Below, piece by piece: positions 3,234-60,542 of a stretch of 64,000 nucleotides of DNA. The notes beneath the pieces were generated by a model that ran no database searches, had not been told where the DNA came from, and saw only the letters and a list, made by a program, of their open reading frames with translations. Made by a program: the position numbers and the translations under genes. Each line of letters starts with the position of its first letter. The stretch's first letter is position 1. Origin of the DNA: a bacterium (GTDB lineage: Bacteria > Patescibacteriota > Minisyncoccia > Phycocordibacterales > UBA5272). The stretch is from assembly GCA_023267635.1 (NCBI GenBank), contig JAHFMX010000004.1, positions 2,837 through 66,836 on the forward strand. Direction: 5' to 3'.

Positions 3234-5453
3234 TTATTTCTTCGCTTCTCCCATCTTGTGTGGATTGTGCATTGGGCACGTTTTATCTGAACATCTTTCT
3301 GGGATAGTTTTCGTTCCTTCCATCATAAGTTCTTTACAGATTGGACAGCGATTACCTGTTGGTTTTGTTTTGATTGCATGTTTACAGTCAGGGTAGTTAG
3401 TACATGAGTAGAACACTCCAAAGCGTCCTCGGCGTTCTTCAAATACTCCGTCAGCACACCAACCACATGAAATACCAGTTGATTTTTTCTTACGCTCTTC
3501 TTCGTCTTGTTCAATATATTTACACTTAGGATAATTTGAACAGGCGATAAACTTCCCGTAACGTCCTTCACGTTCCATTAATTCACCACCGCCATTTTTG
3601 CCAGTGATGTCTCCACACTTAGGACATTTTCGTCCAAGAGACTTTGGTCCTTCCATGACACTGCCATCGAGTTTTCGTGCGCCCATACAATCAGGGTATC
3701 GTGCACAAGAGTAAAACTTTCCTGTACGAGCAAGTTTAATTACCATCTTTGAATTACAAAGAGGACAGAGAATATCATCAGGTGCTTCACCTAGATTCGT
3801 CGCTTTCTCAAGTTTCTCTTTTGATTTCACATCCTTAAGAAAAGGTCCGTAGAAATCTTTGAGTGTCTTCAAATAGGTTGCTTCTCCATTAGCAATTTTG
3901 TCGAGCTTATCTTCCATGTCCGCAGTGAAGGTGTCAGAAATATATTCACCGAGTTGTTCTTCGAGGAATGAGGTAACCACTTCTCCTGTATCCGTTGGGT
4001 GAAGCGCTTTGTTTATTTTTTCTACATATCCACGAGCTTCGATGGTTCCAATAATAGAAGCGTACGTTGAAGGTCGTCCAATACCACGCTTTTCCAATTC
4101 TTTAATAAGTCCAGCTTCAGAATAACGTGCTGGTGGTTGCGTTTGCTTTTCGATTGATTGGAGTGTCGTGAGAGTGAGTGTGCTTCCAACAGTAAGTTCT
4201 GGTAACTGTACATCATCTCCGCGAGCATCAGGATCTGCCATAAGCCATCCTTGGAATGTAACAACAGAACCAGTTACTGAAAAGTTTGGAATTGTTTCTT
4301 TAGATCCAACAATGTTTGCAATCACTTTTGAACGTCTGAGTTTTGCATCTTTCATTTGACTCGATACCGTTCTTTCCCAAATGAGAGAATAGAGTTTCTT
4401 TTCATCATCAGTTGTTCCAGCAGTACGCGCACTCGCATGTGTTGGACGAATCGCTTCATGGGCTTCCTGTGCGTTTTTTGCTTTTGTCTTATATGTTCGA
4501 ACTTCAAGGAAGTTTTTCCCGAAGATATTTTCTACTGTCGTAGCAATTTCGCCAAGTGCTGTACTTGAAAGAGTTGTAGAGTCTGTACGCATGTAGGTAA
4601 TGAGACCTTTTTCGTAGAGCTTCTGAGCGATTCCCATAGTACGAGACGGAGCATATCCTAAACGAGATGATGCTGTCTGTTGCAACGTTGAAGTTGTAAA
4701 TGGTGCACGAGGTGAACGTGATACATCTGATCCGTCGAGCGCTGTTACTTCCCACGCATGTTTACGTCCAAGAGAAACGATACGCTCAGCTTCTCCTTGT
4801 ACAGTAGGTTCAACTTCACACTCCATTGCAAGCGTGTAGCTTTTACTTTCTTTCATTCTTCCTTCTGTTTTCCATTCACCAGCTAGTACGAAATACGTCA
4901 CAGGGATGAACGCTCTGATTTCTCTTTCACGTTCCATAACAATACGAAGTGCAGGGGATTGTACTCGCCCAGCAGAAAGTCCGTAACGAACTTTTTTCCA
5001 GATAATGCCCGAAAGATCATATCCAACCAAACGATCAAGCACACGACGAGCTTCTTGGGCTTCCTTTAAGTTATTGTCGATTTCTCGAGGTTGCTTGATG
5101 GCTTCTTTAATAGCGCTTTCTGTAATTTCGTGGAAAGCTACACGTTTTGCGTTCTTAAGTCCAATAGCTTCTTTAATGTGCCATGCGATAGCCTCTCCTT
5201 CACGGTCGGGGTCGGTTGCGAGTAGTACAGTAGTAGCCTTCTTTGAAAGCATCTTAAGTTCTTCTACTATTTTTTCTTTCCCTGCAGAGATTTCATAGTG
5301 CGGAATAAACCCACCTTCAATGTCGATTGCCTTCTTGTTTGATTTAGGAAGATCACGTATGTGTCCAACGGACGCGCGCACTTCAAATTCACCGCCGAGA
5401 TATTTGGCGATGGTCTTTGCTTTCGATGGGCTTTCTACAATTAATAGTTTCAT
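3234..5453 (-). CDS. topA: DNA topoisomerase I
   Basis: Toprim N-terminus MKLLIVESPSKAKTIAKYLGG, active-site region, multiple C-terminal Cys4 zinc ribbons. Confidence 0.9.
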   Translation of the reverse strand: MKLLIVESPSKAKTIAKYLGGEFEVRASVGHIRDLPKSNKKAIDIEGGFIPHYEISAGKEKIVEELKMLSKKATTVLLATDPDREGEAIAWHIKEAIGLKNAKRVAFHEITESAIKEAIKQPREIDNNLKEAQEARRVLDRLVGYDLSGIIWKKVRYGLSAGRVQSPALRIVMEREREIRAFIPVTYFVLAGEWKTEGRMKESKSYTLAMECEVEPTVQGEAERIVSLGRKHAWEVTALDGSDVSRSPRAPFTTSTLQQTASSRLGYAPSRTMGIAQKLYEKGLITYMRTDSTTLSSTALGEIATTVENIFGKNFLEVRTYKTKAKNAQEAHEAIRPTHASARTAGTTDDEKKLYSLIWERTVSSQMKDAKLRRSKVIANIVGSKETIPNFSVTGSVVTFQGWLMADPDARGDDVQLPELTVGSTLTLTTLQSIEKQTQPPARYSEAGLIKELEKRGIGRPSTYASIIGTIEARGYVEKINKALHPTDTGEVVTSFLEEQLGEYISDTFTADMEDKLDKIANGEATYLKTLKDFYGPFLKDVKSKEKLEKATNLGEAPDDILCPLCNSKMVIKLARTGKFYSCARYPDCMGARKLDGSVMEGPKSLGRKCPKCGDITGKNGGGELMEREGRYGKFIACSNYPKCKYIEQDEEERKKKSTGISCGWCADGVFEERRGRFGVFYSCTNYPDCKHAIKTKPTGNRCPICKELMMEGTKTIPERCSDKTCPMHNPHKMGEAKK

Positions 5454-5467
5454 AAGTCATTCGTACA

Positions 5468-6364
5468 TTACACTACTTTTCTAACTTCGCCAAATGTCTC
5501 CTGTATAGAACCTTTCATTTCAAGTGATGAAAGTGTCATAAGAAATTGATCAGGAGGCAGTTCACTTCGCACGAGTAATGTATCTTTTTCTAAAGGTTCA
5601 GTAAGTAAATCTAAAATCTTCTTTTCTTCTTTTGAGTATACTTGCTCATCTTCTTTTTCTTCTCTTTTTTCTAAGTGAAGGAGATCATGAAGATCGTCAG
5701 CATTACGCAGAATATATGCTCCTTCTTTAATTAACATATTTGTTCCATAGGAAGATTCAGAAAAAATATCTCCAGGAAGTGCTCCTATGTCACGTCCTAA
5801 TTCAAGTGCCTGTCGTGCGGTTATCAGTGTGCCTGATTTTTCTGTTGCTTCAACCACGAAGAGTGCGTCTGATAGTGCTGCCATAATACGATTTCGTGCT
5901 GGGAAGGTCCATTGTGCGGCAGACATCTCTGGCGCGAATTCTGAAAGTAATACTCCACCTGAAGCAACAATCTGTTCAGCTAACCCTAGATTAGTTCTGG
6001 GGTAGATAACCTTAGTATCAAGTCCGCTTCCAGGAACCGCAATGGTTACCAGATTATTTCTGAGAGCTGCTTCATGACTTAGTCCATCAACACCAAGCGC
6101 AAGGCCAGAAAGAATAATAACAGGCTCTCCGCGAAGTGAGCCAAGTAATTTCTCTACAGCAAGTTTTCCGTAGCTGGTATATTTTCGTGATCCAATGACC
6201 GTGAGAATACGTGGAGTTGCGCGACCGTATATATCGAGCGTTACTTTTGGGAGCGTTCCTGCAACGTAGAGTTGCTCAGGTACATCGTGGAGTTCAAGTA
6301 AGCGCGCAAGAAGTGGATGGTTTTTAAATTCTTCACGCGGGATAATTGAAAGAGGAAAGGGCAT
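5468..6364 (-). CDS. dprA: DNA processing protein DprA/Smf
   Basis: Rossmann core SGLALGVDGLSHEAAL; classic dprA-topA adjacency. Confidence 0.85.
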   Translation of the reverse strand: MPFPLSIIPREEFKNHPLLARLLELHDVPEQLYVAGTLPKVTLDIYGRATPRILTVIGSRKYTSYGKLAVEKLLGSLRGEPVIILSGLALGVDGLSHEAALRNNLVTIAVPGSGLDTKVIYPRTNLGLAEQIVASGGVLLSEFAPEMSAAQWTFPARNRIMAALSDALFVVEATEKSGTLITARQALELGRDIGALPGDIFSESSYGTNMLIKEGAYILRNADDLHDLLHLEKREEKEDEQVYSKEEKKILDLLTEPLEKDTLLVRSELPPDQFLMTLSSLEMKGSIQETFGEVRKVV

Positions 6365-6414
6365 GAGCTCAGTCTATAGGTAATAGTCATTAGATGGTAG
6401 TGGAGAATACAAAA

Positions 6415-6492
6415 GTGCCCCGACGCGCAGGACTACGATTTCAAAAAATTGATTACAATTTAAGAAATCGGGAGTCTACGACGTCGGGGCAC
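6415..6492 (-). repeat. hairpin repeat family B, copy a (inverted relative to other copies)
   Basis: gtgccccgacg...cccgatttcttaaattgtaatcaa...gaaatcg...cgtcggggcac; terminal inverted repeats plus nested internal inverted repeats; homologous to 23663-23747 and 47191-47251. Confidence 0.55.
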
Positions 6493-6496
6493 GAAT

Positions 6497-7243
6497 TCAG
6501 AAGCAGGCTAGTCCACCACTATGTGGGTATGGAATTGAGTGTGCCTTAAGAGCGGTAACAGAGATGCCATTTTTACTTGTCTCAACGGATGACCAATTAC
6601 TGCGAATGAATTTCCAGTCCCGCGTTACAATCCTTGGCTGTCCGAAGAGTGGCCACAGTATTTTTTCTGAAAGAGTTTCGGGTTGCAGCACTCCGCGCGC
6701 AACAAAATGAACTTCATCCACCATGTTTACGGCCGCCTTCGGCGGAACACCTATCTGAAGTACCGAGCTTTTGCCAGCAGGGACAATTGAACACCCTTTC
6801 GGCGGAATATTTGCAAACGGCGTTGCGTCGTTACGAGATTCCTCGTAACGAATATAGGTGATGCCATTTGCCGTGAAGCTGGTCTCGCTCCCTTCTTGTA
6901 CTGGTTGGAAATAGAGCTTGCCTGGCACTGGAGGTAAATCCCCGCTTTCTAATTGGACGAAAAGAGCAACTTTACCTGATCTTTCTTCTGGATGTGTAAA
7001 AGAAAATTTTACAAAATCAGGATGAACGAAAAAGAAAACAAGCAAACTGGTTACGGCAAGGCGCCAGGTGTTGTGTTTTAGAAAATCTTTTCCTGCTGGC
7101 GTTTCCCATTGACTAGGGCGGTACCAAGCAAAAAATCCAACAATAGCTGCGAATAAACCGAGAAAGAGTTTGGAAATAACCCACACGATACCTTTTCCAG
7201 TACCTTCGCCAAGTTGTTCAGAAAGTTTATTAAAGCCACCCAT
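6497..7243 (-). CDS. hypothetical membrane-anchored protein
   Basis: ORF with N-terminal TM helices; no recognisable motif. Confidence 0.5.
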   Translation of the reverse strand: MGGFNKLSEQLGEGTGKGIVWVISKLFLGLFAAIVGFFAWYRPSQWETPAGKDFLKHNTWRLAVTSLLVFFFVHPDFVKFSFTHPEERSGKVALFVQLESGDLPPVPGKLYFQPVQEGSETSFTANGITYIRYEESRNDATPFANIPPKGCSIVPAGKSSVLQIGVPPKAAVNMVDEVHFVARGVLQPETLSEKILWPLFGQPRIVTRDWKFIRSNWSSVETSKNGISVTALKAHSIPYPHSGGLACF

Positions 7244-7377
7244 GACGGACCCCCTTTAGTAAAGAGCAGAATTTCTGTATCATACGAAAGAACAGTCGAA
7301 AAAGCAATTATGGAGAGTTTGCGCCCAGAAACACTTCATAGTAGTATTCGTCCCAGTTAAACAATGTTCTTTGGAGG

Positions 7378-8226
7378 ATGCATATGAAACTCTCACCAAC
7401 CGCTTCGCATGTTGTGGTCCTTTTGACTGGATTTATTGTTGCTAGTTCGGTATATCTTCTGTTGGCTGGAGAAGGATACTATTCTTTTGGTCCAGTACAC
7501 GTCTATCGAAACGGCCTCGCGGCGGCGCTGGCACTTGTTGTTTTTGGATTACTTGGTCGGTATTGGCATGTTTCAATCGAGCCCAACACTCAAGGTATCC
7601 AAGTGTTCCTCGGAACACAGAATGGTGAAGTGTGGAATGAAGGCAGTTTTCACTTCATACCTCGTCCCGTTTGGGATATTTGGAAATCGATGTCCGTTGA
7701 ACATTTTGTCTTTACTGTCGCGGCACAGAATCGCACCAGTGAAGGACATCAGATGATGGTGCTTGCCACAGGAAGGGCAATACCCACGGACGCATATGGG
7801 CTAGCAAAAGTAAGTCGAGAGGATCTGACCACCCAACTTATTGGACTCTCAATGCAAACAATTGGCGCATACATCAACAGAGAGCCCCGAGCGAACTTAT
7901 TAAGTTTTCCGGCTTACAACCTTTCTGAATGGTTTGTGTATGACCATCTACACCATGATTTCAACACGTACGGTGTACGAGTAAGTTTGAGCACTACCAA
8001 GGTGGTGGAAATAAATCCGAAAACCATGGAACAGTTTGATGCGCTTGCTCGGACCAAGGATATGGATGCCATCGTCCAGACTCTGAAGGTTTCATTCCCA
8101 GAAACTAGTGATATTGAGCGCTACGCCATCTATGCCACCATGGTAGGGATTAAACCCACGGTAATGACTCACATTATCAAAGGCGGAAACGGAAACATCA
8201 TTCTCGATGGGCATCAAGATACTTAA
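7378..8226 (+). CDS. SPFH/Band-7 (prohibitin-like) family membrane protein
   Basis: N-terminal TM followed by an SPFH-like beta-sheet region (VSIEPNTQGIQVF...GSFHFIPRP) and coiled C-terminus. Confidence 0.5.
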   Translation: MHMKLSPTASHVVVLLTGFIVASSVYLLLAGEGYYSFGPVHVYRNGLAAALALVVFGLLGRYWHVSIEPNTQGIQVFLGTQNGEVWNEGSFHFIPRPVWDIWKSMSVEHFVFTVAAQNRTSEGHQMMVLATGRAIPTDAYGLAKVSREDLTTQLIGLSMQTIGAYINREPRANLLSFPAYNLSEWFVYDHLHHDFNTYGVRVSLSTTKVVEINPKTMEQFDALARTKDMDAIVQTLKVSFPETSDIERYAIYATMVGIKPTVMTHIIKGGNGNIILDGHQDT

Positions 8227-8234
8227 AGGCAGCC

Positions 8235-8268
8235 AAAAGTGTAACCCGAGGGTTACACTTTTTAATTT
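8235..8268 (+). terminator. rho-independent terminator after SPFH gene
   Basis: AGTGTAACCCgagGGGTTACACTtttttaattt. Confidence 0.6.
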
Positions 8269-8270
8269 GT

Positions 8271-8305
8271 GCCCAGGGCGGGACTCGAACCCGCACGCTG
8301 TATAT
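8271..8305 (-). repeat. inverted 35-nt copy of the tRNA-Leu(TAA) 3' end (T-arm + acceptor); tRNA fragment, not a full gene
   Basis: revcomp = acagcgtgcgggttcgagtcccgccctgggcaca, identical to 8913-8947; no matching 5' acceptor strand or anticodon arm upstream. Confidence 0.5.
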
Positions 8306-8400
8306 CAGCTGAGGAAGTTGCGCTAAGTCTGTTTAATGTAGACAGAATTGAAGGCGGACAATCTCCTATAACCTAAAGTTCAGGTAAGTGAATGAACGCA

Positions 8401-8437
8401 AAACGCGGTCCCGTTAGGGACCGCGTTTTTCTTTTTG
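8401..8437. terminator. rho-independent terminator (bidirectional)
   Basis: AAACGCGGTCCCgttaGGGACCGCGTTTttctttttg. Confidence 0.55.
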
Positions 8438-8440
8438 ATG

Positions 8441-8513
8441 TGTCCCCAGAAGGGATCGAACCTTCGACCTGCGGATTAAGAGTCCGATGCTCTACCAGCT
8501 GAGCTATAGGGAC
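8441..8513 (-). tRNA. tRNA-Lys (CTT)
   Basis: Manual cloverleaf on minus strand: acceptor GTCCCTA/TGGGGAC, anticodon loop CTCTTAA, T-arm GAAGGTTCGATCCCTTC. Confidence 0.8.
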
Positions 8514-8623
8514 ATTGACACACGCAGAACACTATACCATAGTATGAAAAACTTTTCTAGATATGTTAGTATGGTATCTATTATGAGGGCGGAACCAAGA
8601 GGTTCCGCCCTCAATAAAAGAAT

Positions 8624-8697
8624 GACGCAGTGGCGAAGTGGCCTAACGCTGCGGTTTGCAAAACCGCCATTCGCGGGTTCGACTCCCGCCTGCGTCT
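8624..8697 (+). tRNA. tRNA-Cys (GCA)
   Basis: Acceptor GACGCAG/CTGCGTC, anticodon stem GCGGT/ACCGC with loop TTGCAAA, T-arm GCGGGTTCGACTCCCGC. Confidence 0.85.
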
Positions 8698-8715
8698 CAC
8701 GAAGTGAGTAAAGGA

Positions 8716-8739
8716 AAAAGCCACCTGCGTGGCTTTTGT
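8716..8739 (+). terminator. terminator hairpin after tRNA-Cys
   Basis: aAGCCACctgcGTGGCTtttg. Confidence 0.45.
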
Positions 8740-8811
8740 CGGGAGTCGAATAGGGGTCGCGAAGTCTTCTGTTTCGAGTATTCACGAAACTAGACTTTGT
8801 GACCGAATCTC

Positions 8812-8830
8812 CCCGCCTGCGTCTCACGAA
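8812..8830 (+). repeat. direct repeat of tRNA-Cys 3' end
   Basis: cccgcctgcgtctcacgaa identical to 8685-8703, 127 bp downstream; preceded by a degenerate T-arm-like gaccgaatctcccc and an inverted T-arm fragment gggagtcgaa (8741-8750). Confidence 0.5.
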
Positions 8831-8837
8831 AGGAATG

Positions 8838-8846
8838 TGCTAGAAT
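8838..8846 (+). promoter_or_regulatory. extended -10 box TGCTAGAAT upstream of tRNA-Leu(TAA)
   Basis: gtgcTAGAATacag 18 nt before tRNA start. Confidence 0.4.
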
Positions 8847-8863
8847 ACAGCCTATAAAACCCT

Positions 8864-8946
8864 GCCCGGGTGATGGAATGGTAGACATAGAGGACTTAAA
8901 ATCCTCGGCTGGTTACAGCGTGCGGGTTCGAGTCCCGCCCTGGGCA
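8864..8946 (+). tRNA. tRNA-Leu (TAA)
   Basis: Acceptor GCCCGGG/CCTGGGC, anticodon stem GAGGA/TCCTC with loop CTTAAAA, long variable arm, T-arm GCGGGTTCGAGTCCCGC. Confidence 0.85.
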
Positions 8947-8953
8947 CATGAAA

Positions 8954-8992
8954 ATAAAAATACCGAAATCATTTTTCGGTATTTTTATTTTT
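8954..8992. terminator. AT-rich rho-independent terminator after tRNA-Leu
   Basis: aaaaATACCGAAAtcattTTTCGGTATttttatttt. Confidence 0.5.
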
Positions 8993-8996
8993 ACAT

Positions 8997-9118
8997 GCAG
9001 GGCGGGACTCGAACCGCGGGCCGCAACCTGCGAAGAGCAGGTGTAGGTTTCGAGGCAAGCATGCCGAGAGGCGAGTCCCGCTGCCAAGCTTCGAATCTGC
9101 TGATTCGCCTGGGCACAT
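8997..9118. other. tRNA-Leu-derived structured element / decayed pseudo-tRNA (identity unresolved)
   Basis: Starts with inverted T-arm/acceptor fragment gcagggcgggactcgaacc (18/19 to tRNA-Leu 3' end) and ends with direct cgcctgggcaca; internal 10-bp long-range stem gcgggactcg (9002-9011) / cgagtcccgc (9074-9083); cannot be folded as a cloverleaf on either strand. Confidence 0.3.
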
Positions 9119-9795
9119 TATATAAACTCTACAGGAATTTCTGCCGTAAATGTTTTTTCTTCGCCGTTAAGTGTGAAGGAAAGTGAGTATGCGTGTAGCA
9201 TAATGCGTGAATCTTTAACGGTACTGCCGTATGCAATGTCTCCGACAATGGGATGTCCACCATATGACATGTGTGCGCGTAACTGATGTGTACGACCTGT
9301 TAAGGGAGCAAGTTCTACGAGGGTTGTGTTGCTGTTTCTTTGTAAAACGTTTACTTCTGTAACAGCAGAACGTAGTTCGCCTCGTGGGTTGATGGGATTA
9401 ACTGATTGTTTGTATTCCTTTTTATTTCTACCAAGAGGAGCATCAATGGTGTAGCTATCTTTTTCTACGACTCCTTCAACCAAAGCAATATATTTTTTTG
9501 TAGTAGCATGATTTAAAAACTCCTTTTTGAGCGCTTCAAAGGTGGGTTCATTTTTCGCAATAACCATAACGCCAGAAGTTTCCCTATCTAATTTATGTAC
9601 GATGCCTCCTAATGGAATGATTCTTTCGTCCTGGAGGGTTATAGAGTTGTTGATAGAAAACATAGCAGGGGAATGCGCATACAAAAAATCAACAACCGTT
9701 TCTTCGTCAGAAAAGTCAAAAGGGTGTACTACGACACCTGAAGGCTTATCTATAACAAGTATGTTTTCATCCTCGAATATAACAGGGATAATCAT
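9118..9795 (-). CDS. RluA-family pseudouridine synthase
   Basis: Catalytic motif region HRLDRETSGVMV and GRTHQLRAHM. Confidence 0.8.
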   Translation of the reverse strand: MIIPVIFEDENILVIDKPSGVVVHPFDFSDEETVVDFLYAHSPAMFSINNSITLQDERIIPLGGIVHKLDRETSGVMVIAKNEPTFEALKKEFLNHATTKKYIALVEGVVEKDSYTIDAPLGRNKKEYKQSVNPINPRGELRSAVTEVNVLQRNSNTTLVELAPLTGRTHQLRAHMSYGGHPIVGDIAYGSTVKDSRIMLHAYSLSFTLNGEEKTFTAEIPVEFI

Positions 9796-9995
9796 GATTA
9801 GTTCATACTACGGGAAAGGAGGAGGAATAACAAGAAAGGACTTGGTTGTAATATGTTTTGGAAAGGAGTCTTGGCTACAAGTTTTGTGTCGTCGCCACTC
9901 CACAAACTCGCAGCCCGCCCCTCGTGGTTTTGCTTGCTAGCAAAACATCACTGCGGGCATTCAAGTCCTTAAGTAAGACAAGTCATTGTCTTACT

Positions 9996-10050
9996 TCCCG
10001 GGCACAAATGAAAAAACACATCAAAGATGTGTTTTTTCATTTGTGCCCGG
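9996..10050. repeat. perfect 26-bp inverted repeat (hairpin) overlapping the 3' end of tRNA-Leu(TAG)
   Basis: cccgggcacaaatgaaaaaacacatc aaa gatgtgttttttcatttgtgcccggg; right arm includes the tRNA acceptor 3' strand; acts as terminator for the minus-strand tRNA. Confidence 0.65.
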
Positions 10051-10125
10051 GAAAGGACTTGAACCTTCATGAGTTGCCTCGCTTGCTCCTAAGGCAAGTG
10101 CGTCTACCAATTTCGCCACCCGGGC
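10044..10125 (-). tRNA. tRNA-Leu (TAG)
   Basis: Minus strand: GCCCGGGTGGCGAAATTGGTAGACGCA, anticodon stem CTTGC/GCAAG with loop CTTAGGA, long variable arm, T-arm. Confidence 0.85.
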
Positions 10126-10207
10126 ATATTTATTTTTTCTAACAACACTTTTCTACAATCTCCTTCGTAATCATTTATTTAAGCGAAATTCACCAATTAG
10201 CATCTTC

Positions 10208-10249
10208 CGCTTGCTAGCTCTAGATGTCTTCGAAGCCAAGCTGCTCGAG
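10208..10249 (+). repeat. short dispersed motif family C, copy 1
   Basis: cgcttgctagctctagatgtcttcgaagccaagctgctcgag ~80% identical to 24288-24329; followed by gccacccgggcata, a direct repeat of the tRNA-Leu(TAG) 5' end at 10117-10130. Confidence 0.45.
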
Positions 10250-10367
10250 CCACCCGGGCATATATAAACCATGTAACTTTACCATAAAACGTACCTTTTG
10301 GAAAATAAAAAACCCGAGGAACGATTTAACGTTCGACTCGGGTTTTGGTTCTCATTGCGAGAATTTT

Positions 10368-11318
10368 TTAGGCGGACAATTGTGTTGCCTTGTGCACGTT
10401 AGGTAATCCTTCCGTGACATGTGCGTGTCTGCCGCGACTGGACTTCACAGTGCTCAGACGGATGCCAGCTATTTCGAGGAGTGCACGGATGTGCTGATCG
10501 AATTCTGGATTCATTTTCGCAGCGCTGTCGACATTGATGATGCTTCCGTAAAGGAGGTGTGCACTCAGGTGGTGTCCTGGTGTGAGTTTCTTCACCACGA
10601 ACTCGTTGCCGAAGTTTCCGCGACGAAGATCGAGGATGAGTTGCCCTTTTTCGTCGGGGGCACTGTAGATACCCAAACAATCTTCCTTCATCAGGTCGGT
10701 AATGGGTCGGCAGGTTTCTCCCAACATCTTGTCTTGAATCGGAACGATGTCTGCGGTCTTGGTAGAACCTTTCTCAGCCGCAGGCACAACATGGGTAGCC
10801 GTCACAAGCACAGGTGGTTGCTTTGATTCCCAGTACCGCTGCTTGACTTCTCGTATTTCGCTTTGCAGGATGCTGTGAAGAAAACCCAACATCCTGTATT
10901 GTTCTTCGCCAATGTAGCCCATGGCAAAATGACATTTTTCCAAAGGAATAAAGAGCCAGACATGCGGGATAAAGATGCCATCTGCACGTTCGATGATGGG
11001 GAATTCACTAGTCGCACCTTCGCGCATCTTGAGTGTGACATCAATGGATTCGCTCCCATTGTCGAAGTTTCGTCCGATGAGGTAGGAGCCTTCGATGCCG
11101 TCACAGAACATTTGAAAGCGCAGACGTCCTGCTGCAATCTTTTGTGCAAGTGTCTGGCGCTCGCGTTCAGTCTCACGATTGCGCTTGGGTGTGTAGTCTG
11201 GCGGGACACCCTTTGCTTTTGCCACCTTTGGCTTCTGGTAGCGAGGCTGCTCGGGGTTTTTACCCCCATTTTCGCTGTCGTGTTTCTCGGTCTTGTGACC
11301 GTTAGATTTGTTCGCCAT
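10368..11318 (-). CDS. hypothetical protein, compositionally distinct (GC-rich, strong SD)
   Basis: 316-aa ORF; by eye ~50% GC vs ~42% background; basic N-terminus; SD aaggag 7 nt before ATG; no recognisable domain. Confidence 0.6.
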   Translation of the reverse strand: MANKSNGHKTEKHDSENGGKNPEQPRYQKPKVAKAKGVPPDYTPKRNRETERERQTLAQKIAAGRLRFQMFCDGIEGSYLIGRNFDNGSESIDVTLKMREGATSEFPIIERADGIFIPHVWLFIPLEKCHFAMGYIGEEQYRMLGFLHSILQSEIREVKQRYWESKQPPVLVTATHVVPAAEKGSTKTADIVPIQDKMLGETCRPITDLMKEDCLGIYSAPDEKGQLILDLRRGNFGNEFVVKKLTPGHHLSAHLLYGSIINVDSAAKMNPEFDQHIRALLEIAGIRLSTVKSSRGRHAHVTEGLPNVHKATQLSA

Positions 11319-11396
11319 TGCAATCTCCTTGGTATGATATGGAAAGGAACAGTTGAAGCATGTTTCTGTCAGAGTACAGCTTGTATGCCATTATAT

Positions 11397-11404
11397 ATTA
11401 TACA
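11397..11404 (-). promoter_or_regulatory. extended -10 box TGTATAAT for the GC-rich 316-aa gene
   Basis: revcomp of attataca; ~80 nt upstream of ATG. Confidence 0.35.
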
Positions 11405-11440
11405 CTAAATACATACTTTGTCAAGTTATACAAAGTACTA

Positions 11441-11462
11441 AAAATGACGCACTCATGCGCCA
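11441..11462 (-). terminator. weak terminator after rbfA
   Basis: minus strand ggcGCATgagtGCGTCatttttag. Confidence 0.3.
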
Positions 11463-11463
11463 T

Positions 11464-11865
11464 TTAGTTTTCTGATTCTTCCGTTTCTGGTTTACCGAGC
11501 TCTTTATCTTTTATCTTCTCGTTTCTGAGAAGTTCATCGATGTGCTGACGGTTTTTCTCTCCGTAATCAATTTCTACTTCAAAGAATGGGATTACTTTTA
11601 CAGGAAGCCGCTTCATCACGTATTTACGCATATCTGTTCGCATGCGACGAGCGAAGTCGAGCGCCGCCTGTTCCTTATCTACTGGAAGTACTGTCATGTA
11701 AATAGTTCCTTGGCGCATGTCTGGAGACACTTCACAGCGAGTGATAGTCATAAGTGAAAGACCTGATGATTCACGCTGAAAGAAATCTTGTACTAAGCTT
11801 AAGATTTCAAGACTCACTTTTGTTTGGCGCTGGCTAGGGCCTTTGTCTGCTCCTTGTGTAAACAT
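11464..11865 (-). CDS. rbfA: ribosome-binding factor A
   Basis: RbfA KH-like core (RVSEEIQRELS-like LEILSLVQDFFQRE; MTVLPVDKEQ) immediately downstream of infB. Confidence 0.7.
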   Translation of the reverse strand: MFTQGADKGPSQRQTKVSLEILSLVQDFFQRESSGLSLMTITRCEVSPDMRQGTIYMTVLPVDKEQAALDFARRMRTDMRKYVMKRLPVKVIPFFEVEIDYGEKNRQHIDELLRNEKIKDKELGKPETEESEN

Positions 11866-11868
11866 ATA

Positions 11869-13401
11869 TTAAATTCTAGTTTTTTCGATCTGGATTGATT
11901 CGAGAATATCTGATGGAATCATTTCGATTTTTGTTTCAACCATGAGACCACACTCATTTCCTTCGATCACTTCAGTAGCCTTAAGCTTTTGTGACTGAAG
12001 CTCAACAACACGACCACGTCCCATATCAACACCGCGACGAATAATCTTTACAAGAGAATTAAGTGCAATGCGACCAGTTTCTACACGGCCTCCAATAACA
12101 TGCTTTTCTTTCTGAGTACTAAATGTTTTAAGAACCTTAAGTGTTCCAAGTACAACTTCCTTTTCTTCGTATGGAAGGCGATCAAGCACTACGGTGTCAA
12201 ACCATTCAGAAAGTTTGTAGATGATATCAAAAGTTTCAGGAACAACCTTGAAGCGGTCTGCTTGTTCTCGAGCCTTACCGTCAATCTTTACCGCAAATCC
12301 AATGATAAGAACTTTTTCGTCTGATGAAGCTTGAATAATATCTCCCTCAGTGATTTGTCCAATTCCTTGCGCGATAATTTTTATCTTCACATGTTCGGTC
12401 TCTCTCTTTTGTAGTTCACGAATAACCGCTGAAAGTGTTCCGAGAGAATCTGCTTTAACGACGATAGGAATAACAACTCTAGCATTTCGGTAGAGGCGAG
12501 GGTCTAGCACTGTTTGAACAGCATTTGATTGTGCTTCAGATTGTAACTTCTCCATTAGTTTTTTGTCAGCAGATGAAATGAAAAGTGAACCAGCAAGAGG
12601 TGCTTCGTCAAAGCCTGTAACTTTTATTGGCTGACCTGCGTGTGGGCTTTTAATTGTTTTGCCCAAGAAGTCTTCAATAATACGAATAGGGGAAAGTGCC
12701 GTACCAGCCAAAATAGAACCAGATGCTGGAAGCGTACCGTCTTTAATGATGAGTGCGGCTGAGATACCACGCTTCTGGTCTACGAAACTTTCAAGTACAT
12801 ATCCTGTTGCTTCAACACCGAGGTTTGCTTTTAGGTCGTTCACTTCAACCACAAGAAGAAGTGTCTCAAGTAGGAAATCAATTCCTTGTCCTGATTTTGC
12901 AGAAATTTCTACGCACGGCACTTCACCTCCGTATCCTTCGATGTAAATTCCATTCTCAACAAGAGAATTCTTAGTCTTCTGGATATCAGCTCCTGGCTTA
13001 TCAATTTTATTGATGGCAACAACGTATGGAAGTTTGTGAGCTTCAATTGTTTTCCATGCTTCGAGCGTTTGAGCCTTTACTCCGTCTTCAGCTGAAACAA
13101 TAAGGATCGCAATATCTGCGATTTCTACACCGCGTTCACGCATAGACTGGAACGCTTCGTGGCCTGGTGTATCGAGGAACGTAATTGGAAGCACTCGTCC
13201 GTCGGTTGCTGTGTGCTGTACTTCGTATGAAGAAATACGCTGTGTGATACCTCCAGCTTCACCGTCCACTACGTTTGATTTGCGAATGAAGTCAAGAAGA
13301 GATGATTTTCCATGGTCGACATGACCAAGAACCGCAATAACTGGCTGACGAGAAACTATCTCCTTTTTCGGGGTGTTTGTAGGCATAAAATAATGACACA
13401 A
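11869..13401 (-). CDS. infB: translation initiation factor IF-2 (short form: G domain + C-terminal domains only)
   Basis: G1 motif GHVDHGKSSLLD, DTPGHEAF, NKID; 510 aa, lacks the long N-terminal region. Confidence 0.85.
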   Translation of the reverse strand: MCHYFMPTNTPKKEIVSRQPVIAVLGHVDHGKSSLLDFIRKSNVVDGEAGGITQRISSYEVQHTATDGRVLPITFLDTPGHEAFQSMRERGVEIADIAILIVSAEDGVKAQTLEAWKTIEAHKLPYVVAINKIDKPGADIQKTKNSLVENGIYIEGYGGEVPCVEISAKSGQGIDFLLETLLLVVEVNDLKANLGVEATGYVLESFVDQKRGISAALIIKDGTLPASGSILAGTALSPIRIIEDFLGKTIKSPHAGQPIKVTGFDEAPLAGSLFISSADKKLMEKLQSEAQSNAVQTVLDPRLYRNARVVIPIVVKADSLGTLSAVIRELQKRETEHVKIKIIAQGIGQITEGDIIQASSDEKVLIIGFAVKIDGKAREQADRFKVVPETFDIIYKLSEWFDTVVLDRLPYEEKEVVLGTLKVLKTFSTQKEKHVIGGRVETGRIALNSLVKIIRRGVDMGRGRVVELQSQKLKATEVIEGNECGLMVETKIEMIPSDILESIQIEKTRI

Positions 13402-53940: not shown

Positions 53941-54013
53941 GCCAAGATAGCTCAGTTGGTAGAGCACTTCCATGGTAAGGAAGAGGTCGCGGGTTCAATT
54001 CCCGCTCTTGGCT
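53941..54013 (+). tRNA. tRNA-Thr (GGT)
   Basis: Acceptor GCCAAGA/TCTTGGC, anticodon stem CTTCC/GGAAG with loop ATGGTAA, T-arm GCGGGTTCAATTCCCGC. Confidence 0.85.
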
Positions 54014-54062
54014 CAGAAATTAAAAAGCACCGGTAAGGTGTTTTTTAATTTCTGAGCCAAGA
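54006..54062. repeat. perfect 21-bp inverted repeat (terminator hairpin) incorporating the tRNA-Thr 3' end
   Basis: tcttggctcagaaattaaaaa gcaccggtaaggtg ttttttaatttctgagccaaga. Confidence 0.65.
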
Positions 54063-54182
54063 GCTTTGAAAGGGGTCGGGGAAACGATAGTTTCCCCGTA
54101 GAGGAGAGTAGTGAGTGTACTCGCGAACGTTGAGAACCGTGGGTTCTCAAAACCGAAGCTTAGCGATAGCGTAGCGGAGGTT

Positions 54183-54202
54183 GCTCTTGGCTCAGAAATT
54201 AA
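54183..54202 (+). repeat. direct repeat of tRNA-Thr 3' end plus trailer
   Basis: gctcttggctcagaaattaa identical to 54004-54023, 179 bp downstream; preceded by degenerate T-arm-like gtagcggaggttgc. Confidence 0.5.
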
Positions 54203-54299
54203 CCTCTTGTAGTCGATTCCCGCTCTAAATTAAGATTCGACAAAACCCTTAATTTTGAGTAGTGTAAGACTTAATTGTTCAACTACTACGGGAGGTTAT

Positions 54300-60468: not shown

Positions 60469-60471
60469 TGC

Positions 60472-60542
60472 TGGGGAACAGGGACTCGAACCCCAATACC
60501 ATCCTCCAGAGGGATGTGTCCTACCATTAGACGATTCCCCAA
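60472..60542 (-). tRNA. tRNA-Gln (CTG)
   Basis: Minus strand: U1-A72 acceptor TGGGGAA/TTCCCCA, short D-loop, anticodon stem CATCC/GGATG with loop CTCTGGA. Confidence 0.8.

Follow-up and report, generated by a model that had tools for sequence, protein, structure and literature searches.

Genes for tRNA and tmRNA are classical landing sites for mobile DNA, and the usual explanation of such landings requires an island that bears an integrase. Williams, in 2002, is said to have placed the classical integrase sublocations at the T-loop or the 3' end of tRNA genes. The Islander abstract is a further source on where integrases act within tRNA genes (PMC4383910).

In the patescibacterial DNA considered here (the window, the whole analysed stretch of 64,000 nucleotides), the tRNA/tmRNA landing site is taken by a conserved fold of about 100 nt, whose arms reproduce both strands of its target and which brings a terminator. 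This module stands behind tRNA and tmRNA genes of many uncultured bacteria of Patescibacteria type and comes and goes between genomes that are about 90% identical, and searches of the literature, including searches with literal motif strings, returned no description of it. The presence of RF2, together with the named relatives, establishes a standard UGA stop and an origin of Parcubacteria type; a comparison of ORF lengths under codes 11 and 25 gave no discrimination.

Repeats at the tRNA loci

ARAGORN and Rfam locate three tRNA genes within positions 8200-9200, tRNA-Lys(ctt) (8440-8513, minus strand), tRNA-Cys (8624-8698, plus strand) and tRNA-Leu(taa) (8864-8947, plus strand), and call no other there, even at E ≤ 10. 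The fragments around these genes, which the original prediction had noted might be explained by additional intact tRNAs, therefore have no such origin. The predicted repeats are real and beyond chance, with coordinates right to 1-3 bases. The 19-mer said to recur downstream of tRNA-Cys (CCCGCCTGCGTCTCACGAA) occurs exactly twice, at 8685-8703 and 8812-8830 (none expected by chance in 100 shuffles), and the inverted T-arm piece reported between the copies is CGGGAGTCGAA at 8740-8750, 100% complementary to 8678-8688. The inverted pair of 35-mers is perfect, again with a chance expectation of none, although its position is 8268-8302 and 8914-8948, not 8271-8305 and 8913-8947. At tRNA-Leu the supposed inverted 19-mer is a perfect 18-mer (8998-9015 against 8925-8942), the 19th base being unpaired, and the short direct copy (CGCCTGGGCACA) is present, but one base away, at 9106-9117, and with a 1-nt deletion relative to the tRNA. 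The same layout had been claimed for tRNA-Thr, and here X (54004-54023), X' (54045-54064) and the second X (54183-54202) are each 20 nt and perfect. The repeats recur in another assembly, the ENA contig L002, which is 100% identical over window positions 3378-12226 and may share the window's source.

Anatomy of the modules

The trailers share one order: a tRNA 3' segment (X), a terminator hairpin, an inverted copy (X'), a structured core and a direct copy of X, after which the old downstream DNA resumes at filled loci. X begins at T-loop position 57, at the boundary between T-stem and acceptor, or at the mature 3' end, and extends into the trailer; in many cases a conserved hairpin, P0, interrupts X'. 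The suggestion that the trailer pairs with the tRNA 3' end holds in so far as X' is complementary to it, but the supported pairing is that of X' with the second X on the tRNA-sense strand, forming a stem that closes the core into a multi-helix junction. Module sizes are uniform, at about 80-220 nt (110-220 nt for the segments searched for an integrase gene), and no ORF or integrase remnant was found in the bounded segments. The features of the window are as follows.

8235..8262, no strand: bidirectional terminator hairpin, common to the 282-aa gene and, in relatives, to minus-strand tRNA-Leu(taa)
8268..8330, minus: tRNA-Leu(taa) pseudogene, left arm of the inverted repeat, aligned to the Leu gene
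8438..8700, no strand: Lys(-)/Cys(+) block, inverted relative to L004, 99.6% identical
8624..8698, plus: tRNA-Cys(gca); X runs from the T-loop to the 3' end plus a CGAA trailer, 8678-8703
8715..8738, plus: Cys module P0, terminator-like hairpin GCCAC-CUGC-GUGGC, then a U run
8740..8750, plus: Cys module X', inverted T-stem 3' strand and T-loop, 11/11 complementary to 8678-8688
8751..8804, plus: Cys module core, short type, UAGG and helix P3 (GGUCGCGAA ... UUUGUGACC)
8805..8830, plus: Cys module direct X copy; 5' part GAAUCUCC diverged, 19-mer 8812-8830 perfect
8831..8948, plus: tRNA-Leu(taa) (8864-8947) with its upstream region, inverted relative to L004, 99.2% identical
8944..8998, plus: Leu-TAA module terminator palindrome, resembling the L004 terminator behind Lys(+)
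8998..9117, plus: Leu-TAA module, divergent variant, with X' at 8998-9015 and two internal hairpins at 9012-9071
9072-9081, plus: Leu-TAA module T-stem copy CGAGUCCCGC
9082-9107, plus: Leu-TAA module hairpin insert of 26 nt, conserved, also in L001
9108-9117, plus: Leu-TAA module acceptor copy CCUGGGCACA
9861..10042, minus: Leu-TAG module, full type 1, behind tRNA-Leu(tag) (10043-10125), conserved in L004
54004..54226, plus: Thr module, with X, terminator, X', type-2 core (54065-54182) and X copy (54183-54202)

The Leu-TAG module comprises a terminator palindrome, A', P0, T', P2, P3 (GGCUGCGAG/CUUGUAGCC) and an X copy. P0 of the Cys module has homologues with a CUGC-type loop in five contigs (L001, L016, L023, L046 and L056). 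The closing stem reaches 11 bp in the Leu-TAA module (z -2.7) and 20 bp in the Thr module (z -9.0), and at the Thr locus an older type-1 module has left a remnant (CCUCUUGUAGUC and GAUUCCCGCUCU) at 54203-54226, 3' of the X copy.

A conserved core behind many tRNAs

The cores of the Cys and Leu-TAG modules are members of a single family, defined by the invariant helix GGUCGCGAA/UUUGUGACC and two conserved G.U pairs. A covariance model of it, R1, finds 32-34 copies across the window and 24 metagenome contigs, the latter being the true members among 120 that matched the sequence pattern. All 62 viral contigs matching the same pattern were chance matches by model R1 (0/62 true members), and viruses were rejected as carriers. 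Within the window R1 matches twice, at the Cys module (8731-8816, 28.6 bits, E 3e-7) and the Leu-TAG module (95.6 bits, E 1e-29); the Leu-TAA module gives no match and the Thr trailer, which carries a second core type, no significant one. The four window modules differ in type. In window-wide motif counts, the two 10-11-mers are no commoner than chance outside modules.

Position is strict: among the 25 R1 matches with enough upstream sequence, 23 begin 27-78 nt behind a tRNA or tmRNA gene on the same strand. The hosts are tRNA-Leu(tag) (five), Leu(taa) (two), Leu(gag), Cys (three), Ser and Arg (two each), Asp, Phe, Gly, Tyr, Trp and Lys, together with tmRNA (two), and at least 13 kinds of tRNA are used. 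In the distant relative L001, whose proteins are about 50% identical to those of the window, the same layout stands behind Leu-TAA and Lys, with the same helix GGGGTCGCGAA...TTTGTGACCGA.

Standard pairs occupy 95.9% of cells in the core alignment, and in this alignment, which depends on model R1, covariation is 0.442 against 0.130 when shuffled (0/500 shuffles reach the observed value) and at most 0.09 with slid partners. One of the two G.U pairs is retained in 30/32 sequences and the other in 27/32, and the fold therefore exists only on the tRNA-sense strand. The longest exact match of the arms to the cognate tRNA has a median of 11 nt for the inverted arm (maximum 23) and 9 nt for the direct arm (maximum 26), whereas for non-cognate tRNAs the medians are 6 and 5 nt (95th percentiles 8 and 7); as judged from these matches, the arms derive from the cognate tRNA.

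We propose the type-1 tRNA-trailer module as a new family, recognised by P3 with both G.U pairs, by a same-strand tRNA or tmRNA gene lying within about 80 nt upstream, and by cognate arms, one inverted and one direct. The Cys and Leu-TAG modules of the window have all three; the Leu-TAA and Thr modules have the type-1 topology, but do not fit model R1. At the gathering threshold and at E ≤ 10, the cores match no Rfam family, including tRNA, tmRNA and the group I and II introns, and the only Rfam scores at these loci are those of the tRNAs and tmRNAs themselves. A covariance model is deserved whichever reading holds, as the module will confuse the annotation of tRNAs, islands and repeats.

Presence, absence and inversion among relatives

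That the bounded segments might be variably present at orthologous tRNAs was confirmed. The relative L004 (89-92% nucleotide identity) lacks the Cys and Leu-TAA modules and has the Leu-TAG module; in L195 and L192 (88-90% identical) tRNA-Thr has neither module nor terminator. Parsimony over these few genomes favours module loss in the L004 group. In L193 a type-1 module stands behind Thr(ggt), and the type-2 core of the window is found behind Thr(cgt), its arms re-matched to that tRNA. Tandem or nested copies occur in L034 (three in a row), L001, L113 and at the Thr locus of the window, where the displaced remnant has the ancestral T-loop base G57, against A57 in the working tRNA. Decay or truncation of the downstream X copy is frequent. 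A tRNA-Thr of L193 has, in addition, a group-I-like insertion in its anticodon loop.

The pair of inverted 35-mers had been suspected of mediating inversion, and the Leu-Cys-Lys block between them does align in inverted orientation relative to both L004 and L001. The left copy is the old 3' end of tRNA-Leu: a perfect 35-nt 3' half (8268-8302) that keeps the ancestral Leu trailer, as in L004, is joined to a decayed 5' part (8303-8330), the whole being colinear with the 3' half of the minus-strand Leu gene of L004, where the hairpin equivalent to 8235..8262 directly adjoins the intact gene. The right arm is 8914-8948. Recombination between inverted copies would invert the intervening DNA, and the Leu-Cys-Lys block would be a case of this.

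A proposed insertable cassette at tRNA 3' ends

What the sequences show, and what has to be explained, is the anatomy, the conserved, covarying core, the strict position behind tRNA or tmRNA genes, the derivation of the arms from the cognate tRNA, the pattern of presence and absence, the nested and tandem copies, and the inversion. The fragments may be the flanks of small structured cassettes that insert at tRNA 3' ends and duplicate them, a reading to which we give an even chance. A small circle consisting of X, terminator, X' and core, either double-stranded or a single-stranded dumbbell with an X:X' stem, would recombine with the chromosomal tRNA inside X and so produce the observed order. 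The tRNA would stay intact and gain a terminator, its former 3' end would be shifted downstream and be free to decay, and a crossover between the direct X copies would excise the cassette cleanly. Cassettes would, we infer, move or be copied in via recombination within X, and the core would be a fold recognised by a trans-acting enzyme. The fuller version is more tentative and seems to us somewhat less than an even prospect: that these are a hitherto unrecognised class of tiny gene-less elements of Patescibacteria, specific for tRNA/tmRNA 3' ends, which would spread or regenerate through a folded single-strand intermediate (dumbbell or hairpin) whose stem copies the target, with an enzyme acting in trans, or, alternatively, a host trailer RNA matched to its tRNA.

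Several observations stand against a cassette. Neither a free or circular form nor a long version carrying cargo was found. The four window modules are mutually different, whereas copies left by a mobile element in a recent burst would be alike, and the Leu-TAG module recurs in five different genomes and is about 96% conserved between the window and L004, as if selected where it stands. A cassette must carry the X and X' of its target, so that switching between tRNAs should be difficult, yet at least 13 kinds are used; and X' of the Cys module matches the working tRNA, not the downstream copy, which a simple circle model does not predict.

A linked enzyme was sought and rejected. An all-against-all BLAST of ORFs from the 24 carrier loci showed no enrichment of any protein family, recombinases and reverse transcriptases included, beside the modules; the neighbours share no recombinase, reverse transcriptase or nuclease family, and within the window no recombinase or reverse transcriptase lies near the modules. 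The only recurrent neighbour is a pseudouridine synthase, at four loci, with synteny as the simplest cause.

If the modules are mobile, they represent a new and minimal way to target tRNA genes, and would explain local inversions and the reshuffling of tRNA loci in very small genomes. If they are host RNA, a widespread and unannotated part of tRNA expression has been found in a large, poorly understood bacterial phylum.

Alternative explanations

The main rival, which we think unlikely but by a good way the strongest of the alternatives, is a cis element of the tRNA transcription unit that serves the host. The trailer would provide termination and a folded RNA, which might, for example, help to form the 3' end, keep exonucleases away or act as a switch, with the tRNA 3' end and the downstream copy as alternative partners of X'; on this view the tRNA-derived arms are needed for function and do not mark an insertion. 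Such a role agrees with a strongly covarying fold that exists on the tRNA-sense strand only, with its conserved G.U pairs, and with a position always co-oriented with, and immediately behind, a tRNA or tmRNA gene. The ORFs of the 24 carrier loci include no mobility gene linked to modules, the Leu-TAG module seen in five genomes has changed less between the window and L004 than its flanking genes have, and tandem G-A motifs, which we read as kink-turn-like, suggest a protein-binding RNA. In most cases, however, the tRNA and the core are separated by a canonical terminator hairpin with a U run, at which the majority of transcripts should end without reaching the core. In close relatives, tRNA-Cys, Leu-TAA and Thr have no module. 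Tandem arrays and decayed or nested remnants are hard to square with one host function, and the downstream X copy is often decayed or truncated.

It is far less probable that the repeats are decayed attL/attR scars of prophages or islands that used tyrosine integrases at tRNA 3' ends and later lost their interiors. Of the readings offered at the outset, att-like duplication is topologically the nearest: behind an intact tRNA stands a displaced direct copy of that tRNA's 3' end (at Cys, at Thr and in the family), the repeat begins at one of the classical integrase sublocations (T-loop or 3' end), tmRNA is used too, and, as with tyrosine-integrase islands, occupancy varies among relatives and elements stack in tandem. 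The modules are nonetheless not decayed integrase islands, for the bounded segments carry the same conserved, covarying core at many unrelated tRNAs and at tmRNA on unrelated contigs, a finding by which this explanation is already largely refuted. Unlike islands, they are uniformly small and without genes, with no integrase gene or remnant in the window segments or among the neighbours in the 24 carrier loci, and no protein family common to those neighbours; their arms are an inverted and a direct copy of the local tRNA, and the inverted target copy and structured core are added across at least 13 tRNA kinds.

Degenerate tandem tRNA duplicates decaying in place are scarcely credible as a general account and already refuted for every part but the Leu pseudogene, since only 8268-8330 can be aligned with most of tRNA-Leu(taa), its 5' part being decayed, and has the whole-tRNA similarity, with D and anticodon arms, expected of a tRNA pseudogene, whereas the Cys, Leu-TAG, Leu-TAA and Thr trailers lack any trace of a D-arm or anticodon arm, are not called as tRNAs at E ≤ 10, and fit either a covariance model other than that of tRNA or a second conserved core.

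Other identities were considered and set aside. The core nucleotides mismatch, by eye, those of the hammerhead, group II domain V and the tmRNA 5' domain, with no Rfam signal for any of them. The T-loop junction, which follows GTTC, is suggestive of analogies with IS200/IS605, IS91, bridge RNA or omega RNA. These were rejected: no transposase or TnpB gene is present, the arms are the same target half twice, and the 3'-end and acceptor-boundary classes of junction share no common target motif.

Comparison with other known systems

Group I introns occur in tRNA genes of Patescibacteria (PMC13011429), sharing phylum and type of locus with the modules, which differ from them in standing behind the tRNA and not inside it, in being far smaller, and in giving no Intron_gpI signal. 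The likeness to the msr-msd (a1/a2) of retrons is one of shape only: a closing stem formed by flanking inverted repeats encloses one short and one long conserved hairpin, and conserved G residues adjoin the stem. The modules are much shorter, however, their arms are derived from tRNA, and no reverse transcriptase gene lies adjacent or directly downstream, the neighbours being tRNAs, the pseudouridine synthase gene, small ORFs and prfB.

REP/BIME, Correia and Rickettsia palindromic elements and MITEs are, like the modules, small, gene-less, structured, intergenic and often terminator-like. They are distinct from the modules in having constant terminal inverted repeats, with a short target duplication, and many near-identical copies per genome. 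The arms of the modules are instead locus-specific copies of the neighbouring tRNA (5-26 nt, one inverted and one direct), the modules stand exclusively behind tRNA or tmRNA genes, and copies within a genome are dissimilar, with two R1 matches in 64 kb.

There is, finally, what we take to be a resemblance to the folded single-strand attachment sites integron attC and the CTX-phi attP hairpin, the latter used by XerCD. The modules have neither the RYYYAAC / GTTRRRY (R/L-box) consensus of attC, their helix being GGTCGCGAA/TTTGTGACC, nor a dif-like site, no integron integrase gene is found in the loci, and the target is a tRNA 3' end. By analogy, both kinds of site may be seen as imperfect hairpins with a conserved base, non-Watson-Crick positions and a variable top, whose stem appears to reproduce the duplex of the chromosomal target, and a folded circle that integrated in the manner of attC or attP would yield the order X, loop, X', core and X.

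tRNA genes and flanking repeats

Three tRNA genes, on which ARAGORN and Rfam agree, lie at 8200–9200, and all of the tRNA-derived repeats that the original prediction had described around them are present, with coordinates off by 1–3 bases at most:

8440–8513, minus strand: tRNA-Lys(ctt)
8624–8698, plus strand: tRNA-Cys(gca)
8864–8947, plus strand: tRNA-Leu(taa)
8685–8703 and 8812–8830: direct repeat, Cys 19-mer
8740–8750: inverted T-arm piece CGGGAGTCGAA
8998–9015: inverted Leu piece, a perfect 18-mer
9106–9117: direct copy CGCCTGGGCACA
8268–8302 and 8914–8948: 35-mer, a perfect inverted pair

Neither program called any further tRNA-like sequence at 8200–9200 that would explain the fragments, even at E ≤ 10. 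Less than one occurrence is expected by chance for the Cys 19-mer, and likewise for the 35-mer, and over 8.8 kb the window matches an ENA contig (L002) with 100% identity. The presence of repeats behind these tRNAs is real and confirmed.

A family of modules behind tRNA and tmRNA genes

A scan of metagenome contigs for this pattern returned a majority of chance matches and one clear family. From 5' to 3', its members comprise a tRNA or tmRNA gene ending in a 3' segment (X); a terminator hairpin with a palindrome that commonly reaches across trailer and acceptor strand; an inverted copy of the acceptor 3' strand (A'); a conserved hairpin, P0 (GAAAGnCA-ACUGCU-UGnCUUUC); the inverted T-stem 3' strand and T-loop (T'); a core; and a direct copy of X, from T-loop position 57 onwards. 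In its full form, the type-1 core consists of a GAAAG linker, a hairpin P2 with tandem G-A motifs at its base, and a hairpin P3 (GGUCGCGAA-variable-UUUGUGACC) preceded by GG. A short core lacking P2 is found at the Cys gene of the window and in the comparison genomes and contigs L001, L016, L023, L056 and L126.

L001, a MAG named Ca. Gracilibacteria, is the sole labelled relative in the genome collection; it has the same tRNA cluster as the window, at ~50% protein identity. Its Leu(taa) and Lys genes are each followed by a terminator hairpin, a T-arm piece in inverted orientation, a hairpin (GGGGTCGCGAA...TTTGTGACCGA) and the T-stem 3' strand as a direct copy; the helix of this hairpin is identical in the Cys trailer of the window. 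Release factor 2 of the window has close relatives named Ca. Pacebacteria, Nomurabacteria and Parcubacteria, which assigns the window to the Patescibacteria and UGA to its stop codons.

A covariance model of the type-1 core (R1) matches 32–34 copies across the window and 24 metagenome contigs, and finds no module on 62 viral contigs that fit the bare pattern. Among the 25 matches with enough upstream sequence, 23 start 27–78 nt behind a tRNA or tmRNA on the same strand, and the host genes include at least 13 kinds of tRNA as well as tmRNA. Pairing cells make up 95.9% on the model alignment, and the covariation score is 0.442, versus 0.130 when shuffled (0 of 500 shuffles reach 0.442) and at most 0.09 with partners slid, on an alignment that was fitted to R1 itself and is biased in the model's favour. 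MAFFT with RNAalifold recovered the same helices from 16 sequences, with double changes at 13 of 20 pairs. Two G.U pairs of P3 are kept in 30 and 27 of 32 sequences, which confines the fold to the tRNA-sense strand, as RNA or single-stranded DNA. The two arms match the 3' end of the cognate tRNA over a median of 11 and 9 nt, compared with 6 and 5 for non-cognate tRNAs. No family matching the core was found in Rfam 15, and no description of the modules in the literature, which was searched also by literal motif strings. The family is real, widespread and apparently undescribed.

Modules of the window

The trailer of tRNA-Leu(tag) is a full type-1 member:

9861–10042, minus strand: Leu(tag) trailer

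Its P3 (GGCUGCGAG/CUUGUAGCC) carries a compensatory swap, with both G.U pairs retained. Upstream of the same tRNA (10140–10260, minus strand), a direct copy of its first 11 bases (GCCCGGGTGGC) lies ~125 nt before the gene and is followed by a piece resembling an inverted D-arm region. This arrangement is conserved in the relative L004 and is possibly the 5' equivalent of the 3' modules.

The Leu(taa) trailer, to which R1 gives no match, is a divergent variant of the module, in which an 11-bp closing stem (9001–9011 with 9072–9082) surrounds two hairpins. Between its T-stem and acceptor copies lies a 26-nt hairpin (9082–9107; AGCUUCRAAUC-UGCU-GAUUCG) that is conserved in L001 (4965–4990, minus strand). 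Its place corresponds, in mirror image, to that of P0 on the 5' side, and both hairpins have a CUGC-type loop.

At tRNA-Thr, a perfect 20-bp closing stem encloses a different, type-2 core (z = -9.0), homologous to the tRNA-Thr(cgt) trailer of a further relative, L193, with a compensatory change in one hairpin; the arms of the L193 module are re-matched to its own tRNA. Behind the window's type-2 module lies a type-1 remnant (...CUUGUAGUC|GAUUCCCGCUCU), which keeps G57, the state in all three relatives compared at this locus (L195, L192 and L193), while the working tRNA-Thr of the window has A57.

A gene for an RluA-type pseudouridine synthase (9118–9795, minus strand, in the window) adjoins module-bearing tRNAs in four loci (the window, L001, L016 and L046), its stop codon directly abutting the last tRNA-derived copy in the window and L001. 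This is probably synteny.

Presence and absence among relatives

L004, with 89–92% nucleotide identity to the window, has the order 282-aa gene, terminator, Leu(taa)(-), DUF2238 gene, Cys(-), Lys(+), terminator. It has neither the Cys nor the Leu(taa) module, and keeps the Leu(tag) module at ~96% identity. In L195 and L192 (88–90% identity) tRNA-Thr has neither module nor terminator, with other DNA or a PGA_cap gene directly 3', and in L193 (~77%) a module stands behind each of the two Thr genes. In L001, Leu(taa) and Lys have modules and Cys has none. Copies stand in tandem or are nested in L034, L113, L001 and at the Thr locus of the window. Together, these patterns indicate that modules are gained and lost over the time in which species diverge, and that they stack at one tRNA.

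At the place of the window's 130-nt Cys module, L004 has the DUF2238 membrane-protein gene (4862–5476), flanked by Leu(taa) and Cys, and in L192 (20827–20882) and L193 the PGA_cap gene begins a few bases at most from the end of tRNA-Thr, or after the trailer; the 3' flanks of tRNA genes seem to be hot spots for insertion in general. In L001 (5664–6300) the complete Lys module is followed, after 615 bp that include a 100-aa ORF, by an orphan second right end (AGACCTTGTGACC|GATCCCTA), perhaps that of an older, cargo-bearing module. A weak core-like match on contig L067 (3982–4095; 18 bits), with its own inverted T-arm-like piece, lies behind a 346-aa ORF, 1.4 kb from the nearest same-strand tRNA, and may be an orphan or cargo-carrying module. 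The tRNA-Thr(ggt) of L193 (7787–7975) is split just after the anticodon by ~190 nt containing a sub-threshold Group I intron match (24 bits, E 7e-4), which fits the tRNA introns described in Patescibacteria (PMC13011429).

Inversion of the tRNA block

The original prediction had suggested that the 35-mers could mediate inversion, and this is supported as a past event. Between colinear flanks, the Cys-Lys block (8438–8700; 99.6% identity) and the Leu gene plus the sequence upstream of it (8831–8948; 99.2%) are inverted relative to L004, whose orientation L001 shares. The copy at 8268–8302 occupies the exact place of the 3' half of the intact Leu(-) of L004, with the trailer and terminator of that gene retained, and 8303–8330 aligns to a decayed Leu 5' part. 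In the simplest history, a second Leu copy with a module would have been gained on the far side of Lys, and recombination between the two inverted Leu copies would then have flipped the block, leaving one working Leu (a good 5' part and a module-linked 3' part) and one pseudogene. Overall, the earlier interpretation is supported in part.

The identity of these tRNA blocks to L004, which includes 110 nt of non-tRNA promoter spacer, exceeds the 89–92% of the flanking genes, and points to very strong constraint or else to a recent exchange of tRNA loci. The tRNA-Gln of the window (60470–60541, minus strand) runs opposite to its orthologue in L195, L192 and L193, between genes that are colinear on both sides and intergenic flanks that are unrelated; the tRNA genes here apparently undergo replacement or inversion in small units.

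Possible origin of the modules

That the modules are inserted cassettes, subject to gain and loss, is a reading to which we give an even chance. A small circle that carries X, terminator, X' (the inverted copy) and core would, by crossing over once with the chromosome within X, give the order X, terminator, X', core, X; a single-stranded version of the circle would form a dumbbell whose stem copies the target duplex. Such a circle would account for the intact tRNA, the imported terminator without counterpart at empty sites, the displaced and decaying copy, the stacking and the clean loss. It leaves unexplained how both arms come to match a new tRNA, and why the Cys X' fits the working tRNA instead of the copy downstream; as to an enzyme, no protein family is enriched near the modules.

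The fold on the sense strand and the long-term retention at Leu(tag) support the main rival, a trailer RNA primarily serving the host, which we consider rather unlikely. Against it speak the terminator that stands before the core, the dispensability of the module in close relatives and the tandem remnants. The cassette and host-RNA readings are not mutually exclusive.

Relation to known systems

The modules share their topology with tRNA-targeting integrative islands, whose integration scars were among the earlier readings of the repeats, but lack the defining integrase and have a conserved fold instead. Because their arms are locus-specific, they are not MITE or REP elements in the usual sense, and while retron RNA is similar in shape, the modules are without reverse transcriptase. 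The proposed fold, carrying a mimic of its target, would resemble attC and CTX-phi sites.
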